DNA of 64,000 bases from an uncultured delta proteobacterium (GTDB lineage Bacteria; Desulfobacterota; Binatia; UBA9968): assembly GCA_963847445.1 (NCBI GenBank), contig CAWJZV010000046.1, positions 256,001 through 320,000 of the forward strand, given 5' to 3'. The notes below the pieces were generated by a model, which was given only the letters and a program-made list of their open reading frames with translations, did no database searches and was not told the DNA's origin. The translations under genes and the position numbers were made by a program. Positions 7,073 to 19,073 of the stretch are shown here, in pieces. Positions within the stretch are counted from its first letter, which is position 1. Each line of letters begins with the position of its first letter.

Positions 7073-7743
7073 TTAAGTTGCTGTGCGCTACTTTCGGAAG
7101 GATGCGGCGCGGTGATAGTTGCTGCTCAGCTGCCGCCACTGTCACCGCCGCCGCGCCGCGCCGATTCGTCGCGCCGCGCGCGGTCGATTTCTTCGTCGAA
7201 GTCTTTTCCGATGCGTTGGGCTGCTATGCCAAGCTGGTTGTTATCGAGTATGTTGGCCAGAGCTCTTTCGGACGTCGCGACGTATTGTCACGCCGCTATC
7301 CCAAGACAACCCAAAGACCGGGTCTGCCGCGATATACTCGATGGTTTCATGGATGCTCTTGAGGCCGGCTTCGATCTCTTTTCTGCCGCGATCGCGGTCG
7401 CCGCTGCGTAGTAAAGTCAAACCAAGATAGAGATGGGCCAGGGCATCGTCGTGATGGATGCTGACGGCTTTTTCCAGGGTCGTCCGTGCAGCCTTATCAT
7501 TACCGGTTTCGTAGTAGGCTCGGCCTAGATAGGTCAGGACACGTGCCGGGACCCATGTAGGGGTGCGATACTTCGGGTCTGATCGGCGGCGCGCATCAGA
7601 TAGCCGACCGCGTCGTTGGGGCGGCCGGTTTGCAGGGCATTGCGGCCGGCGGTGTACATCGCCGGCGACTGGCACGCTGGCACGCTCGAAAAGTAGATTA
7701 GCGCGGATAAACAGCTCGGAACGAGTAACGTACGAGTCTTCAT
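7073..7743 (-). CDS. TPR-containing exported protein or lipoprotein; frameshifted
   Basis: Hydrophobic N-terminus; TPR-like TYLGRAYYETG and ALAHLYLGLTLL. Confidence 0.7.
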
Positions 7744-8664: not shown

Positions 8665-9779
8665 TCAATTGAGTTGGATGACGTTCTTGATCCCCGTGGC
8701 TTTGCCGAGCAACAGCTCGCGATGGTCGGTCATGCCAAAACGGCCGGTGATCAACGATCGCACCGCCTCGGGCCAGGCGTCGTTGAAGGTCTGCAGGTCG
8801 CGGATCGCGGTTTCGAAAATGTCGCGGCCGGCGTTGACGGTGCCGAACACCACCTGGTTCTTGAGCACGAGATTGCGCATCATCAGATCGGTGTCGATTT
8901 CCACCGGCCCTTTGCGGCCGGGCACACCGGTGAAGATAAAGATGCCGTTGGTGCCGAGCTATTGCATCATGTCGAAGGCCAGGCGCGACGCGCCGGTGGC
9001 TTCGTAAACCAGGTCGACGTTGCCGATCTCGCGCGGCGAGCTGCTCGAGCGAATGAGTCTGCGCCGAGCGGTACTGGGCGCCGATCATTTCGAGCACGCG
9101 CGGATTTGTCGTTGGGCGCCGGTTCGCGGGCGTAAACGTAGGTGTCGAAGTCGGCATTCACCAGCGCCATCGCGCCGAGCAGGCCGACCGGGCCGGCGCC
9201 GAGCACCACGGCCTTGCGACAATGAGCGCGGGCTTTGCCCGGAACCACCGGGCAGCCCCAGGGCAGCCGTTGCTGGACGTGCCAGACCTGGGCCAGCGCT
9301 TTTTCGGCGATGGTCAGCGGCTCGACCAGCACGGCGACGTCGCGCAGAGCGCGCGGAACGAGGTTCATGTAAACTTCGTCGTCGACGACGAACTGCGTCA
9401 TGAAGCCATGCTGCTCTTTGATGCCGCGCTCGGTGAAGTCGCCGGTGAAGCAAAAGTCCTGGCGGCTCGCGCGGCAGGCCATGCAATGATCGTGGGGGCA
9501 GGGCCGGCGCACCATCGGCACCACCAGATCGCCGACGTTCACCCGCGTGACCTCGGCGCCGACCTCGACGACTTCGCCGAGCGACTCGTGGCCGATCACC
9601 AGATCGGCCATGCCGGCGGGCGGCGTGCCGTACTCGAAGGCGCAGATCTCCCGGTCGGTGCCGCAGACGCCGACTTCGAGCATGCGCAGTTTGACATCGG
9701 TGGGGGAGGACAGCTTGGGTTCGGCGATGTCGATCAGCGAAACCTGTTTGATTGACGGCGTGACGGCGATGGCGCGCAT
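8665..9779 (-). CDS. zinc-dependent glucose 1-dehydrogenase (MDR family); frameshifted
   Basis: GVCGTD, GHESLG, VRRPC..C..C..C, ERGIKEQHGF, EPLTIAEKA, GAGPVG, VFGTVNA. Confidence 0.88.
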
Positions 9780-10876: not shown

Positions 10877-11188
10877 TTACGCCGCCAGCTGAGTCAAGAG
10901 GCAAAAAACTATCGCGGTGACTCGGCGCAGTTTGCTGCGCAGAAAGCCAAGCACGTTGTCGCGCACCTTGGGCGGAATCTCATCGGCGCCTAATGTCGCG
11001 GTGGTTTGGACCGTCTTCTTGTAGGTTTTCACAAAATTGACGCAGTCCGGACAGCTGCTCAGATGTTGAGTAAACGCTTGTTTCACCGTTGGGCGCAGTT
11101 TGTCGGTTAAGTAATCCAGCAGCAGATCGGCGATCTGTTTACAGGTTTTTGCGGCTAACGGGCGGCGCGTCGTTTTGACTTTGGGCAT
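10877..11188 (-). CDS. zf-HC2 (ZAS) anti-sigma factor, copy 1
   Basis: TCKQIADLLLDYL..FTQHLSSCPDC; immediately downstream of the ECF sigma gene. Confidence 0.9.
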   Translation of the reverse strand: MPKVKTTRRPLAAKTCKQIADLLLDYLTDKLRPTVKQAFTQHLSSCPDCVNFVKTYKKTVQTTATLGADEIPPKVRDNVLGFLRSKLRRVTAIVFCLLTQLAA

Positions 11189-11202
11189 CGATGACTCTTT
11201 CC

Positions 11203-11946
11203 TTACGCTGCGGAGATAGCCGAGTTGGACCGCCAGCTTGCCGCGCAGGAACAGGCGCGCGCGATGCAGCCGAGTTTTGACCGCCGAGACCGTCAAGCCG
11301 GTGGCGGCGGCGATTTCCTTATCGGCCAAGCCTTCGAGATCGCTCAGGACGATGACGTTTTATCGACCGGTTTCAATTGTTCGAGGGCTCTCGCGATCAG
11401 CGCTTGAGTTTCACTCTTGGCGTAGTGTTCGTCGAGGGTATCCGACCAGTCGACCACCGGCCGCGCTGATGGTGGCCGTCGGCTTGAAACTTGGGCAGGA
11501 ATTCCTCGTAGGCGATTTCCTTATTTTTCTTGCTGCGGCGAATGCGACCCAAGCGCGGCGTTGACAGTCAGCCGATAGAGCCAGGTGGAGAATTGCGAAT
11601 GGCCCTGGAACAATGGGCTTTGCGGAAGGCGGTGAGAAAAACATCCTGGATCACTTCTTCGGCGTCGCGGGGCATCGCCTTCAGAATGCGCAACGCGACG
11701 TTGTAGAGTTTGCCGGAATAAAGGTTGAAAGCCTGCTCCAGGGCGGCGTGGTCGCCGGCCTTGAAGCCGGGTCACGAGATTGACTTCGTCCTGGGCCCGA
11801 CCGCGGGGTTTGGGCGCCAGCGAGGGGTTAGCGTTGCGCCGGGCGATCTCGCGAGCCAGCGGCGGTGTCAAACTGCGGCCGCGCGATCGTTCAACCGATT
11901 CGTTGTCCAAAATAATCATGATCCCCTCCCCATCGAATGACATCAT
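11203..11946 (-). CDS. ECF sigma-70 family factor; frameshifted
   Basis: Region 2 (DAEEVIQDVF, FQGHSQFSTWLYRLTVNAA) and region 4 (KEIAAATGLTVSAVKTRLHRAR). Confidence 0.9.
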
Positions 11947-12485: not shown

Positions 12486-15198
12486 ATGTCTGATCCGCAA
12501 AACCTTGGTGTTCGAATGACGCCCGCAGATCCTTCAGTAAGCGTCTGCTTCGGTGCCCAGGTGAGCGATATTTCTCCGTCCAGCCATGTCGCTTACTTTT
12601 GGAACGATGAAAAGGAGTTTGCCGATGGCGTGAAGTTTCTCGAGTCCGGACTATCGGCCAGCGATCACTGTGTGATTTTTGGCCACGATGAAGCCAATCA
12701 AATGGTTTGCGACGTGCTTAAGGGACGCGGCTATGACGTCGATGGTTTGCTGGCATCCGGGCGCATCACTATCCTCGGCGGCGGCCACGGAAGCGTCGGA
12801 GATTCTCGCCAAGATCGGCGCGGTGTTTGAAAAATCATTGGCCGCCGGCGCGTCGCTGATTCGACTTTTAGGCAACATCGGTTGGGGCAGAGCCAACTGG
12901 CCGGACGAAAAATCGTTGCTGGCGTTCGAAGCGCAGGTGACCGAAGCGGCGAAACAGTTTCCTTGCGTCGTGGTCTGCATGTACGACGTCGCCGGTTTGC
13001 CAGGATCGATCGTCCACCATGGCGGGATCGGCACTCATCCGCATATCGTCAGCAACGGCCACGCGCAAGCCAACCCGCATTATGTGCCGACCGAGATCTT
13101 CTTGCGCCGCATGGAAACCGTTGCCGGCGCGGTGGCCGAGCGCCGGCGCAACGAAGCAACGCTGCACCATATCACCGAAGGCACGGTGCAGATCGTCGGC
13201 GACGATTTTTTTCGCCAACTGGCGCGCCATCTCGCCGAGGCGCTGCGTGTCCGCTACTGCTTCGTCACCGAATGCACCGACGATTCGCAGACCCGGCTGC
13301 GCGCGCTGGCGTTTTGGGACGGCCATGGGTTTGCGCAAAACGTCGAATATCCGCTGCGCGGCACGCCCTGTGAAAAAGTCATCGAAGGCAATATTTGCTC
13401 CTACCCCGATCGGCTGCAATCAGCTGTTTCCCGAGGACAAGGATCTGGTCACCCTCGGCGCTGAAAGCTACGCCGGCGTGCCGCTGGCCGAACTCGACAG
13501 GGCCGGGTGCTCGGCCATCTGGTGGTGATGGACAACCGCGCGCGCGAGTTTGGCCCGGCGAAAATGAGCTGCGCATATTGCGTATCTTCGCCACCCGCGC
13601 CGGCATCGAACTCGAACGGAGCGCGCCGACGCAGGTACCTCTAACGCCGAATTGACGCGCGCAATAAACAGATCGCGGCGAAACGCGTGGCAATCTGCTC
13701 GAAGTCAACAATGCGATCGTCACCAAACTGACCCGGGATGAGCTTTTCGCGGTGATCTGCTGACTCACTGGCAGCAAGGCGATCTGTTTCGACCGGCTGG
13801 CGCTTTCGCTTTACGATCCGGAGCTCAAAGCCTTGCGGATCGTCACCTACGCCGGCGCCTATCAGCGGGCGGATTACACGCCGATCGGCCGCGTGCTGAA
13901 ACTCGACGACAGCCCGGCGGGGCAGGCGTTTTGCCAGCCAAAAACCGGTCCTGTGCAGCGATCTTGAAATCGAGCGACTGCACCGCTTCCGAGGAACGCG
14001 CTTACGGCCATGGCTTTCGCTCGATGTGTGCTGTTGCCTCTGGTGGTGCATGGCCGATCCATCGGCGCCATTACGGTCGGCAGCCTGACCCGTTCGCAGT
14101 ATTCCGCAGCCGACGCGGAGTTTCTCATGGAGGTGGCCAACCAGATCGCCATCGCCGTCGAGAATATGCAGCTGCACGAAGAGACCGCCAGCGCTGAAAG
14201 CGCGCTTCGAGGCCGAGACGGTTTATCTTGCAGGAAGAAATCAAGACCGAGCATAACTTCGAAGAGATCATCGGCCAGAGCGCGCCGGTGCGCGAGCTCT
14301 TGCGCAAGGTCGAGCAGGTGGCGCCCACCGACGCCACGGTGTTGATTTGCGGCGAGACCGGCACCGGCAAGGAATTGTTGGCGCGCGCGGTGCACGACCG
14401 CAGCAAGCGCAAGGATCGCGCCGTTGGTCAAAGTCAATTGCGGCTCGATCCCGTCGGGTCTGGTGGAAAGCGAGCTGTTCGGCCATGAAAAGGGCGCGTT
14501 TACCGGCGCCACCCAGCGGCGCATCGGCCGCTTCGAACTCGCCCATGGCGGGACGATCTTTCTCGATGAGGTGACCGAGTTGCCGCTCGATACCCAGGTC
14601 AAACTGTTGCGCGTGCTGCAAGAAGGCGAGTTCGAACGAGTCGGCAGCAGCCAGACGATCAAGGTCGACGTGCGCGTGATCGCCGCGACCAATCGCGATC
14701 TCGAAGCAGGTCGTCGGCAACGGCAGTTTTCGCGCCGATTTATTTTATCGTCTTGAATGTTTTTCCGCTGGAAGTGCCGCCGCTGCGCGAGCGCAAGGAC
14801 GATATCCCGTTGTTGGTCAACTTTTTCTTGAGCCGGTTCGGCAAGAAGCTCGGCAAAGAAGTGCGCGGCGTGACGCGGCGCTCGATGGAGAGTCTGGTTC
14901 GCTACAGCTGGCCGGGCAACATTCGCGAGCTGCAAAACGTCATCGAACGCGCGGTGGTGCTGGCCACTGGCCCGGTGGTGCAAGTGGAGAAGCGATGCGG
15001 CCTTGCGGCGAAAACGCCGGCCAGGAGGAACCGCGCCTGCGACTCTGGAGAACAACGAGCGGGCGCATATTCAACGCGCGCTAGCCGAAACCAACTGGGT
15101 GATTCATGGCAAGAAGGGCGCGGCGGAGCTGCTCGGCATCAACCCGAGCACGCTTGCGCTCGCGCATGGAGAAACTAGGGATCAAGAAGCAGGCGTAA
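12486..15198 (+). CDS. sigma54-dependent activator, MEDS-GAF-GAF-AAA+-HTH (FhlA-like); frameshifted
   Basis: MEDS (HVAYFW..LLAFEA..VCMYD), GAF (YPLRGTPC), [54 protein letters not shown]. Confidence 0.92.
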
Positions 15199-15207
15199 CC
15201 TAGCTTG

Positions 15208-15332
15208 AGGTTCAAATCGTTCAAATCGTTCAAGCCGTTCAAATCGCTGATCGCTCAACGATTCGAACGGATCGTAGCGATTGAACGGCTTGAACGTTTT
15301 GAACGACTGGAGCGTTTGAACGACTTGAACGC
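15208..15332. repeat. inverted pair of 9-bp tandem repeat arms (GTTCAAATC / TTGAACG family)
   Basis: gttcaaatc-gttcaaatc-gttcaagcc-gttcaaatc followed by complementary ttgaacg units; related arms at about 4845, 42523, 44808 and 46741-46890. Confidence 0.85.
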
Positions 15333-15919
15333 GCGAAGCATTTTATAACCGGCGCCAGCTTGAAGGCCAAGCGAAAACCCAAAAGCAGCGCGAGTACCGC
15401 GCCATATTGCACCGGGCGGCGGATGTCGGCTTTGACCAGCCAGTAAAAGTGCAGCACGCCGAGAATTGCGATGCCATAAACCAGATAGTGCAGTTGTTGC
15501 CAGCGCTTGCCGAGGCGGCGGATCATGGCGGCGCTCGATGTAACCGCCAGCGGGATCATTAGCACCAGAGCGCTGAAGCCGACGGTGATGTAGGGCCGCT
15601 TGAAAATGTCTTTGGCGATGGCGGCGAAATCGAAGAACAGATCGAGCACCATGTAGGTGGAGAAATGCAGCGCGGCGTAGAAAAACGCGAACAGGCCGAG
15701 CATGCGGCGCAATTTGATCAGTTCGTTCCAGCCGGTGAGCCGGCGCAGCGGCGTGACGGCTAGACTGGCAAGCAAAATAATCAACGACCAGGAACCGGTG
15801 AAGCGGGTGATGTACTCGATCGGGTTGGCGGTCAAATTATCGCTGTAATAGCCGTAGCCGAGTTGGCCGAGCGGAATGAGGCAGACGATGAAGAGCGCGG
15901 GCTTTAGATAGGCAAGCAT
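15239..15919 (-). CDS. msrQ: methionine sulfoxide reductase heme-binding membrane subunit
   Basis: ANPIEYITRFTG, LRRMLGLFAFFYA..H, KRPYITVG, LGKRWQQLHYLVY, LHFYW. Confidence 0.95.
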   Translation of the reverse strand: MLAYLKPALFIVCLIPLGQLGYGYYSDNLTANPIEYITRFTGSWSLIILLASLAVTPLRRLTGWNELIKLRRMLGLFAFFYAALHFSTYMVLDLFFDFAAIAKDIFKRPYITVGFSALVLMIPLAVTSSAAMIRRLGKRWQQLHYLVYGIAILGVLHFYWLVKADIRRPVQYGAVLALLLGFRLAFKLAPVIKCFARSSRSNAPVVQNVQAVQSLRSVRIVERSAI

Positions 15920-15929
15920 AGGAATTAAT

Positions 15930-16015
15930 AAATTGAGAATGGAAAATTCAAAAAAATAGGATCAGACGACTGGGTTGATCTGTCTGGCATTTTCAATTTT
16001 CACATTTTCCATTAT
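15930..16015. repeat. AT-rich inverted short-period repeat between msrP and msrQ
   Basis: aattgagaatggaaaattcaaaa ... attttcaattttcacattttccatt. Confidence 0.65.
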
Positions 16016-16016
16016 T

Positions 16017-16979
16017 TCAGTAATTTTTCTTAAGATCCATTCCTTTATACAAGCTCGCTACTTGATCGCCGTAACCGTTGAACATCAAGGTCTTGCGCCG
16101 GCGGAATTCGCCGATGCGCCGTTCGGTCGCCTGGGTCCAGCGCGGATGGTCGACTTCGGGATTCACGTTGGAATAAAAGCCATACTCTTGCGGCTGCATC
16201 ATGTTCCACGATGCTGCCGGCTGCTTTTCGACGAAGCGAACTTTGACGATGGACTTGATGCTCTTGAAGCCGTACTTCCACGGCACGACGAGACGGATCG
16301 GCGCGCCGTTCTGTGCCGGCAAGACCTCGCCGTAGAGACCCACCGAGAGAATCGTCAGCGGATGCATCGCTTCATCCATGCGCAACCCTTCGACATAGGG
16401 CCATTCCATGGTCGGCAGCCTTTGGCCAGGAAGCCGCTTGGGATCGTTGAGGGTGACGAATTGGATGAACTTGGCGTTGCTGGTGGGCTCGGCGAGTTTG
16501 ATCAGGGCGCTCAATGGAAAGCCGACCCATGGAATCACCATCGACCACGCTTCAACACAGCGCAGCCGATAAATCCGCTCTTCCAACGGCGCCAGCTTGA
16601 TCAGCTCCTCGATGTCGTAGGTCTTGGCCTTTTTGACTTCGCCTTCCACCGCGACCGACCAAGGACGGGTAATCAGATACTTGGCATTCTCCGCCGGATC
16701 TTCTTTGTCGGGGCCGAGTTCGTAGAAATTATTATAGCTGGTGATCTCCTTCAGCGTGTTGAGCTTTTCGTTGGTGCTGAAATTACTTTTCTTGACGTTG
16801 GCGAGTTTCTCGGCGCCATAGGCGATGCCCGATTCTGTGCCCAGCTCCAAGCCGCCGAGTATCGCGCCGGTGCCGAGCGCCATGGCCGATGCCGAAAGCA
16901 TGAATTGGCGGCGGTTAAGGTAGTGCTCCTTGGGCGTGATCTCCGCTGCTTTGATATCGGCGGGCTTTTTGATCAGCAT
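16017..16979 (-). CDS. msrP: periplasmic methionine sulfoxide reductase, molybdopterin catalytic subunit
   Basis: Tat signal [49 protein letters not shown]; true start MLIKKP at 16979. Confidence 0.97.
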
Positions 16980-17008
16980 TGATTCTCCTCTGCGAACCTC
17001 GCGCGCCG

Positions 17009-17530
17009 CTATTCGGCGAGCAGTTGTTTGATCGTCGACTCGGTTTTGCCGTAGGCGCCTTCGCCTATATGGCTGTAGCGGATTGAGCCCTTTTTGTCGA
17101 CCAGCACGATGGTCGGCCAAGCCCAGACGCCGTAGCGTTTCCAAATATCGAAGTTGTTGTCTTGCACCACCGGGAACTTGATGCCGAGTTTCGCCGTCGC
17201 ATCTTTCACTTTGTCGATTGGTTTCTCCCAAGGAAACTCCGGCGAGTGGACGCCGACGATGGTTAATCCGGCTTGCTCGTACTTATCATGCCAACTCCGC
17301 AACTGCGGGATGATGTTTTTGCAATTGATTCAGCCATAGGTCCAGAATTCCACAAGGACGACTCGGCCTTTAAGGCTCGCGATGGTCAGCGGTTTGCTGT
17401 TGATCCAATTATCGCCGGCGATATCCGGCGCCGTCGTGCCGCTGGTGAGCGCCGCGCCGGCGCGCGGCCATGCCAGCCAAATCGCTAGCGCGAGAACCAA
17501 AGCGACTGAATAAGCTGTCAAACGCACCAT
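17009..17530 (-). CDS. exported redoxin (TlpA/DipZ-C-like thioredoxin fold) with an in-frame TGA at the catalytic site; probable selenoprotein (UxxC)
   Basis: ORFs 17330..17530 and 17009..17302 are in one frame: [32 protein letters not shown]; hairpin CCGC-AGTT-GCGG about 21 nt after the TGA. Confidence 0.88.
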
Positions 17531-17578
17531 GTACTTTTACCATTTCTCCTCGACCCTAGCGGCATGTCAGCGCATCAA

Positions 17579-17607
17579 TTAGATGCCATCCGCACCGGAG
17601 TGGTTGC
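17579..17607 (-). promoter_or_regulatory. ECF-type promoter, copy 6: GCAACC-N16-CATCTAA
   Basis: Exact motif upstream of redoxin-msrP-msrQ. Confidence 0.82.
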
Positions 17608-17683
17608 GAGGTTGGGCAAATTTTCTATTAAACGTCGGTTTGCCGGGCAAAGTTCCCCAGCGGTGACTGACAAAGTGAATTTC

Positions 17684-17727
17684 AAAAAACCCAGCCGGGG
17701 GCTCGTGAGAGCCCCGGCGCGGTGGGT
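17684..17727 (-). terminator. rho-independent terminator
   Basis: GCCGGGGCTC/GAGCCCCCGGC hairpin followed by a T run on the minus strand, after 17734..17946. Confidence 0.8.
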
Positions 17728-17733
17728 GGGCGG

Positions 17734-17946
17734 TTAGTGGAGGAGTTGGGAGAGGGGCGCAAAATTTTCTAATTCTTTATCTAAGTCAACCGGTTGGGCA
17801 GTTTTCTTGATCATTTCCATCACCGCGAATCGAGCCAGGTTGTAAGCGTCTTTATCGTTGTCGGAGTATTCGAAAGCGACTTCGCTGGCGGCGGCGATCA
17901 AATCTCCCAAGGTGGTGTCGATCCTGCGGCTATTGGGTTTTTCCAT
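17734..17946 (-). CDS. small hypothetical protein (IDTTLGDLIAAA motif)
   Basis: 70 aa, AAAGGA RBS, own promoter and terminator. Confidence 0.75.
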   Translation of the reverse strand: MEKPNSRRIDTTLGDLIAAASEVAFEYSDNDKDAYNLARFAVMEMIKKTAQPVDLDKELENFAPLSQLLH

Positions 17947-17976
17947 GGTCTCGCGGGTCCTTTCTCCCTTGCTTGG

Positions 17977-18004
17977 TTAGACGATTGCGGAGAAAAAAGG
18001 ATGT
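17977..18004 (-). promoter_or_regulatory. ECF-type promoter, copy 7 (variant): ACATCC-N15-CGTCTAA
   Basis: Same -10; spacer is one short but contains a T6 homopolymer prone to indel error. Confidence 0.55.
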
Positions 18005-18072
18005 AGTGCGTTGTCAACTTCACTGACCTGCGAAATGGTAGAAATCGCTCGTCTTCATGCGCATTGAAAGTT

Positions 18073-18205
18073 CGTCATGCCGGTGAAAATCATCCAGACC
18101 CATCATCCACCTGGATACCGTTTTTCAACGGTATGACGGACTCTGTCCGTCACCTGGATTCCGGCCCCGGATCGAGTCCGGGGCAGGCTCTGCGCCGGAA
18201 TGACG
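18073..18205. repeat. REP-like palindrome, CGTCAT..ATCCA/TGGAT..ATGACG family
   Basis: cgtcatgccgg..catcca..ctggatacc..gtatgacg and ctggattccggc..gccggaatgacg; relatives at 23121, 41255 and 61300. Confidence 0.8.
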
Positions 18206-18305
18206 GAAGGGCAGTCGGCTGCCGGTCGACAATCTCAGCACCGCTCGGAAAAGCGTCGACGGTTGCTTATTTCGACCAATGAATGCTTCCGGCGGGCGTG
18301 GCAAC

Positions 18306-19073
18306 TTACTGTTCAGGCGGCGGATCGATCTCAGCTTCTTCAACCTTCTTGGCTGGCGCGAGCTGTTGGGCGTTGCGATTTTCACTCTGGCTCAGGTAGC
18401 CGACACTGGCGAGGCGGTTCAATATGATGTTGCGCCGGGCGGCTAGGCCGCGCTCCTTGGAGTTGCGCGGGCTCGGCAGCAGGGCGGCCAAGGTCGCGGC
18501 TTCGACCAGGTCGACGGAACCGGCGGATTTGCCGAAGTAGTGTCGCGCCGCCGCTTCGACGCCGTAAATATTGCGGCCCAATTCGACGACGTTCAAGTAA
18601 ACCTCGAAAATGCGCCGCTTCGACAGGGCGTTTTCCAGCTGATGGGCGATGATGATTTCTTTCAACTTGCGCAGCGGATTTTTCGACGGGCTGAGATAAA
18701 GGTTCTTGGCAAGCTGCATGGTGATGGTGCTGCCGCCTCGGCTAAAGCTCAAGGTCTCAAGATCCTTCTTGAACGCGGCCTTGAGCTCTGTCATGTCAAC
18801 GCCCTTATGGCTGTAGAATCCGGCGTCCTCACTGATCAGGACGGCTTTTTTAATATGCTCTGAGATCGCACCGTAGGACACCCAGATTTGTTGGCGCCGC
18901 CCGCGTGAGTTTTGCTTTTTGTACTCTTGGTCGCGCAAGTCCATGAGCGCAGTGCTATTAGGATTCTTCTGCTTGAGCCGCGAAACGTCGGGCAACGAGA
19001 AGTAAAAATAGTAACCGGCGCTGACCAGGAGGGTCGCGACCAAGGTGCTAAGTAGGACTCTTTTCATGTTCAA
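18306..19073 (-). CDS. mtgA: monofunctional peptidoglycan transglycosylase
   Basis: SEDAGFYSHKGVD, RGGSTITMQLAKNLYL, RKLKE, YLNVVE, YGVEAAARHYF. Confidence 0.92.
   Translation of the reverse strand: MNMKRVLLSTLVATLLVSAGYYFYFSLPDVSRLKQKNPNSTALMDLRDQEYKKQNSRGRRQQIWVSYGAISEHIKKAVLISEDAGFYSHKGVDMTELKAAFKKDLETLSFSRGGSTITMQLAKNLYLSPSKNPLRKLKEIIIAHQLENALSKRRIFEVYLNVVELGRNIYGVEAAARHYFGKSAGSVDLVEAATLAALLPSPRNSKERGLAARRNIILNRLASVGYLSQSENRNAQQLAPAKKVEEAEIDPPPEQ

Follow-up and report, generated by a model that had tools for sequence, protein, structure and literature searches.

The window, i.e. the whole 64,000-nucleotide stretch of DNA that was analysed, encodes at the head of an msrP-msrQ unit a redoxin that is a genuine selenoprotein; its kind is already known, and it belongs to a DipZ-type subfamily. 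Family-level conservation indicates that its UGA codon is read as selenocysteine via an in-frame SECIS element, and, as judged by gene order, the link between the redoxin and msrPQ within this subfamily is conserved but optional.

The redoxin frame runs from 17530 to 17009 on the minus strand, which the initial annotation had not specified. Translation joined the two ORF fragments from which the initial annotation had proposed one 173-aa frame broken only by TGA, yielding 173 residues with a single internal TGA at 17330–17332. This TGA is codon 67 in the context EFWTYG*INC, and the ortholog codons and an identical contig from the public run X1 (see below) point to Sec67 as the attacking residue of a U-I-N-C motif; Cys70 (17321–17323), which is nearly invariant in 84 Cys homologues, would be the resolving cysteine. 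The Pfam models AhpC-TSA, Redoxin and Thioredoxin_8 all scored above cut-off, and a thioredoxin fold with UxxC and a downstream Trp-Pro motif is present (W138 and P139 are invariant). The best PDB match was the DipZ thioredoxin domain 2HYX (E 2e-39), followed by SOQ1 and NHLRC2, and the N-terminal domain of PilB was matched weakly in the structure-database search (E 1e-7). No NCBIfam family reached its curated cut-off for the redoxin (ResA, StoA, TlpA and WAxxUGC were tried; best 67.6 vs 170). The N-terminus is hydrophobic, with 15-residue Kyte-Doolittle means of 1.8–2.1 for windows starting at residues 1–9, as is that of the orthologs inspected, and a signal peptide or membrane anchor is predicted at 17450–17530, in line with the initial annotation as far as hydropathy goes. 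By comparison of fold and motif the protein is classified as an exported or membrane-anchored TlpA/DipZ-like reductase. Databases carry it as fragments of 66–74 aa and 97–103 aa, labelled 'hypothetical' or 'AhpC'.

A redoxin ortholog was found in 40 of the 61 genomes of the same Binatia order (counted one per genome), 38 of them with one TGA and two without. The codon position was checked in 30 Binatia loci, resulting in 28 TGA and 2 TGC, and in a 201-genome sample of the class (45 matches at E ≤ 1e-35) TGA copies were confined to the order of the source genome. For the Methylomirabilia, 121 genomes yielded 73 orthologs, 69 with TGA; the codon was read in 19 of the 20 fetched loci as TGA (16) or TGC (3). 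The in-frame UGA is thus conserved and aligns to the catalytic Cys of the redoxin homologues, and the alternation of TGA and Cys codons that had been predicted for this position is borne out by the presence of both among the orthologs. In the tree the Cys copies nest among Sec copies, which suggests repeated Sec-to-Cys reversions. Two Binatia Cys redoxins (L022 of genome G003 and L037 of G013) still have the hairpin intact, their genomes contain selA, and they are probably recent reversions of this type. A misread GANTC methylation site as the source of the TGC-AGC in G003 was rejected, as such a change occurred at only 1 of 18 GANTC sites.

The hairpin that had been noted some 25 nt after the TGA was recovered in both position and sequence: its core CCGC-AGTT-GCGG lies at 17308–17297 with the loop beginning 25 nt past the TGA, and the putative SECIS element as a whole, (C)CCGC-AGUU-GCGG(A), occupies 17296–17309 of the minus strand. 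For bacterial SECIS elements a loop of 3–9 nt located 16–37 nt after the UGA, with G in one of its first two positions, and a stem of at least 4 bp are described in section 5 of PMC13188914; the values found here are 25 nt, an AGUU loop and a stem of 4–5 bp. The folding energy amounts to −7.4 kcal/mol in a 30-nt window, a value which depends on the window folded, compared with a SECIS threshold of −7.5. It is the weakest of the 34 hairpins folded, the other 33 spanning −8.3 to −13.1 kcal/mol, owing to a G→A change that breaks the fifth pair. Furthermore, the energy of a 73-nt fold was not above chance (z = 0.39); the support for the hairpin comes from conservation. In the 19 family-f1 loci with TGA, 44 degenerate codons encode a conserved residue, and just three of them are invariant: CCG (+8), TTG (+10) and CGG (+11), exactly the stem and loop. 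TTG and CGG have usages of 22% and 20% in the source genome; given the kinship of the 19 loci, the invariance does not amount to a statistical test. All TGA loci carry the loop G (47 of 47), whereas it is missing in 4 of 6 Cys loci, being gone in all four from Methylomirabilia and kept in the two from Binatia. In distant redoxin copies the stem sequence changes and the pairing is kept. The invariant codons and the loop G support the earlier proposal that this hairpin is the SECIS element.

Downstream of the redoxin stop msrP starts after 29 nt (16979 to 16017, minus strand; NF003767, 484 bits vs a cut-off of 207). It encodes the molybdenum methionine-sulfoxide reductase with a twin-arginine signal and a single Cys, the Mo ligand, and is followed by msrQ (15239–15919, minus strand; NF003831, 198 vs 130) for the haem-binding membrane subunit, which keeps its His residues. 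The position of the redoxin at the head of an msrP-msrQ unit is therefore confirmed and extends to its relatives: in families f1 and f2 msrP adjoins the redoxin in all 25 orthologs (one at a contig end). For the Sec redoxins of family f3 none of 15 is linked to msrP; msrA is adjacent in 6 of 8 loci, in convergent orientation. Among the 66 Methylomirabilia genomes that have both genes, 32 carry redoxin and msrP on one strand within 5 kb of each other, either directly adjacent, with a kinase and a regulator in between, or with msrP first; the other 34 are unlinked, some possibly through short contigs. The order msrA-msrP-msrQ-redoxin was observed at locus L144. A survey of 14 further f1/f2 msrP loci revealed eight without an upstream redoxin and three with remnants, and at least nine f1 relatives have lost or truncated the redoxin yet kept msrP, from which we conclude that the redoxin is dispensable. 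The Mo-ligand Cys of MsrP is conserved in 49 of 49 sequences, and 45 of the 49 contain no other Cys. Obligate presence with msrP and a thiol target on MsrP, which would be expected of an MsrPQ subunit, were thus not found for the redoxin. Two further observations were made: a second, more divergent msrP copy is located at 7464–8429 of contig C27, also in many congeners, and a conserved 70-aa ORF (17734–17946 of the window, minus strand) in most congeners separates the redoxin from a transglycosylase gene; it matched no Pfam family, and its Atlas clusters are all 'hypothetical' and mostly from Binatota.

Upstream of the redoxin two promoter-like motifs were found on the minus strand, P1 (GGAACTTT-N15-GTT, 17631–17656) and P2 (GCAAC-N18-CATCTAA, 17579–17607), each in 16 of 19 family loci; judged by their shape, we take both to be ECF-sigma-like. 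P2 is kept upstream of msrP in four genomes without the redoxin, and P1 or P2 persists in six genomes in which the redoxin is lost or truncated. Genome-wide, 11 P1 and 8 P2 sites were counted compared with 5 and 4 in one shuffle, and since none of the sites listed lies ahead of the exported msrA, msrB or ccdA, no regulon is claimed. One RNA-run contig, from a 95%-identical relative, spans the redoxin-msrP junction, which is weak evidence of co-expression because a contig does not demonstrate a single transcript; the RNA runs cover small shares of the window and are silent on level and strand. A sigma70-like motif (TTGACA-N17-xAxxxT) at the 3' end of the redoxin, ahead of msrP, occurs in 11 of 20 family loci (L025, L026, L028, L029 and L031–L037), is absent in the source genome, and could drive msrP separately where present. 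A general promoter/terminator scan was not used, its hits being near shuffle level (4 vs 1.9 and 8 vs 4.8), and the Rfam scan of 15000–19000 gave nothing at gathering score. Apart from the redoxin locus, P1 and P2 occur together at 9538–9577 of contig C5 ahead of a methyltransferase-like and radical-SAM-like pair (named by appearance), two more P2 motifs precede a zinc dehydrogenase-like and a gluconolactonase-like gene of the window (9915 and 1485, minus strand), and near 10877–11946 there is a sigma factor with a frameshift, accompanied by a zf-HC2 partner.

The longer homologues give an indication of possible partners. In the best 120 of 2682 the redoxin domain is fused to MsrB in 75 cases, most of the others being DipZ-like with CcdA fused, and 52 of the top 53 are MsrB fusions. 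A careful tree (141 columns) resolved two supported Sec-rich clades, each with Binatia and Methylomirabilota (99/94 and 99/95), besides a clade of MsrB fusions (100/92) and one of DipZ-like sequences (95/81) apart from the redoxin, with the deep forks unsettled. A sister position of the Sec copies to the MsrB fusions, seen in a quick tree (88), was not upheld. Transfer of the redoxin between the two phyla is plausible. Directly upstream of the redoxin, ccdA is found at L159 and L160; the source genome has a ccdA behind its own ResA-like gene. The MsrB (contig C42) and MsrA (C33) of the source genome carry N-terminal export-like signals. Exported MsrB did not co-occur with the redoxin in family f1, being present in 14 of 21 genomes with and 6 of 9 without it. 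In many Methylomirabilia a histidine kinase and a response regulator follow the redoxin, even where msrP is elsewhere, and no ccm genes were found among the 44 neighbours scanned. Two loci from Nitrosomonadales/Gallionella, L071 and L077, hold msrB with two redoxins of the family, L071 also msrA. In Chloroflexota (L089:753–3910 and L090:3373–6521) the gene after msrP encodes a Trx(CxxS)-NHL-repeat protein that looks like a lipoprotein and resembles NHLRC2/SOQ1, and L089 has a CxxCH-motif protein upstream.

Whether the UGA is recoded can be asked for the family and for the source strain. A sequencing error, or a nonsense mutation without recoding, might be suspected in an error-prone assembly whose redoxin hairpin is not unusually stable, the more so as PQLR codons alone can give a similar stem (L067). 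At family level this reading is refuted and we give it practically no credence: TGA recurs in 107 of 113 orthologs (Binatia order and Methylomirabilia), conservation continues in the half of the redoxin downstream of it, and all 19 loci have TTG as the loop codon. For the family, recoding is also supported by selA scoring above cut-off in 56 of 61 genomes of the order and by an intact tRNA-Sec in 16 of the 30 congeners. The recurrence in orthologs and the X1 contig, which equals 17020–17411 with 0 differences including TGA and hairpin variant, show that the TGA is not a sequencing error, as had been anticipated from the mainly indel-type errors of the contig; a relation between run X1 and the source sample is possible, so that X1 perhaps gives no independent support.

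For the strain it is possible, if doubtful, that a genomic island has destroyed selC, so that UGA now acts as a stop and the redoxin is a fresh pseudogene of a family which truly is a selenoprotein family. The Sec machinery, which the initial annotation had named as a check, was recovered in part: selA, selB and selD are located at 191.5–195.9 kb of contig C14, with frameshifts, and no intact selC was found in the source assembly, only a 5' and a 3' piece (L133, L134) without the anticodon part. The 5' piece (tRNA nt 1–23 with its native upstream flank; 239464–239486 of C4, mid-contig) differs at two positions that are constant across the 11 relatives compared and is followed by lower-GC DNA that is present elsewhere in two other genomes; the 3' piece, the last 28 nt, lies at 77575–77602 of C12. 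An integrase-like ORF, named by appearance, adjoins it (C12:77650–78840). The split selC bears on every selenoprotein call in the source genome, and with only these pieces in the assembly the strain may no longer make the redoxin. Loss would further be consistent with the weakest hairpin of 34, its G→A change being shared by X1, and with eight single-base indels in the 4.3 kb of selABD compared with 3.1 expected (P = 0.015), many being present in fdhA as well. On the other hand, these selABD indels are mostly insertions (7:1), a bias shared with the background (32:12), where the number of insertions per 3.3 kb ranges between 0 and 14, and TGA is retained in selD and fdhA. Furthermore, the assembly is 91.8% complete and C4 and C12 both end inside the island, so an intact selC may be unassembled; in 14 of the 30 congeners tRNA-Sec was likewise not found. 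A tRNA-SeC proposed by ARAGORN at C2:139122 was discarded, as were five relaxed calls, for poor structure and no match to the tRNA-Sec of the relatives. Loss in this strain would be compatible with the function proposed below for the redoxin family.

With respect to that function, we regard it as fairly probable that a CcdA-fed Sec-redoxin reduces envelope thiols, possibly those of exported MsrA/MsrB, in parallel to methionine repair via quinone, MsrQ and MsrP. The selenolate would attack disulfides or sulfenic acids, with Cys70 resolving, and the redoxin would probably be re-reduced by a CcdA-type membrane carrier; donor and clients are inferred from ccdA adjacency (L159, L160), from the fusions seen in DipZ and with MsrB, and from the precedent of PilB and Etrx. 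Being presumably co-transcribed with msrPQ from shared stress promoters, it would act beside MsrPQ as an accessory arm and not as a subunit, so that envelope Cys repair, possibly with MsrA/MsrB recycling, would be induced together with quinone-fed Met repair. A coupling of Cys and Met repair, as proposed in the initial annotation, is thereby plausible, with Rosetta-stone support from the MsrB fusions among the top longer homologues. Several observations stand against the function proposed here: exported MsrB does not track the redoxin, the grouping of Sec copies with MsrB fusions is lost in the careful tree, family f3 and 34 of 66 Methylomirabilia are unlinked, the ccdA of the source genome sits behind its own ResA-like gene, and msrP possibly has a separate promoter in 11 of 20 loci.

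The second half of the earlier proposal, an alternative electron route to MsrP, was not supported. In its strict form the redoxin would be a direct donor to MsrP (or MsrQ), its selenolate reducing the Mo centre and bypassing the quinones, and if true, a CcdA-fed selenolate as third MsrPQ component would mean quinone-independent, selenium-dependent envelope methionine repair in Binatia and Methylomirabilota. The tight, repeated linkage in two phyla, which survives rearrangement, is in favour of such a role, and so are the Chloroflexota loci L089 and L090, where a related Trx(CxxS)-NHL protein follows msrP and no msrQ was detected. We nevertheless consider it highly improbable, as MsrP has no conserved second Cys, msrQ keeps its His residues and comes after msrP in every linked locus of sufficient length, the relatives mentioned above retained msrP after redoxin loss or truncation, and MsrQ is given as the donor of MsrP in the available parts of PMC13488963 and 10.1101/243626. 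Less far-fetched, though still rather unlikely, is a general periplasmic reductase for cytochrome c or metal-site maturation or for the resetting of sensor kinases, merely co-regulated under the stress promoter. The nearest named models of the redoxin are ResA, StoA and TlpA, all of which score below cut-off; these models, the kinase and regulator after the redoxin in many Methylomirabilia and the persistence of the promoter motifs without the redoxin fit such a role. Against it stand the absence of an adjacent kinase in the window and of ccm genes among the scanned neighbours, and closest long relatives that are MsrB fusions and not DipZ.

The envelope thiol reductase acting beside MsrPQ, i.e. 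the reading we prefer, is assigned by guilt-by-association. The same domain is MsrB-fused in Acidobacteriota and stands beside msrP/msrA here, a pattern indicating that it was recruited to envelope repair more than once. Two abundant uncultured soil lineages thereby gain a widespread subfamily of exported selenoproteins. As the Sec and Cys versions of the source genome and G003 are 95% identical, the benefit of Sec in the periplasm is directly testable, and the broken selC possibly shows a selenoprotein-using strain caught losing the trait through island integration. No published account of a selenoredoxin-msrPQ coupling was found in the literature examined; selenoprotein catalogues and their supplements may already list the family. 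A term search of the main text of PMC13326102 gave no mention of Msr, redoxin or TlpA.

Among the known systems, UxxC redoxin selenoproteins are already catalogued in PMC13188914, and within the available text they share with the redoxin the Pfam domains, UxxC and a coding-region SECIS fitting the consensus. In the same portion, Table 1 contains no DipZ-type or msrPQ-linked entry and section 9 on operons no Msr, while one of the Table 1 entries, e.g. PF08534, may be the same family. The FWxYxCINC and GVHxPEF motifs of DipZ (2HYX, 5CYY), SOQ1 and NHLRC2 align with the redoxin, which in contrast to DipZ is a free-standing 173-aa single domain with no CcdA or C-terminal domain and with Sec for Cys. 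In the Neisseria Trx-MsrAB protein (PilB) and the pneumococcal Etrx-MsrAB2-CcdA system an exported TlpA-like reductase is likewise tied to Met-sulfoxide repair. According to the available part of PMC13488963, exported Msr enzymes rely on a fused or partner Trx with CcdA/DsbD, and MsrP on MsrQ. The redoxin, unlike PilB and Etrx, carries Sec and neighbours MsrP, an unrelated molybdenum enzyme reported to need no thiol donor. Compared with MsrPQ (YedYZ), whose NCBIfam cut-offs msrP and msrQ both exceed, the unit here begins with an additional selenoprotein gene, and in Methylomirabilia the unit often includes a two-component system.
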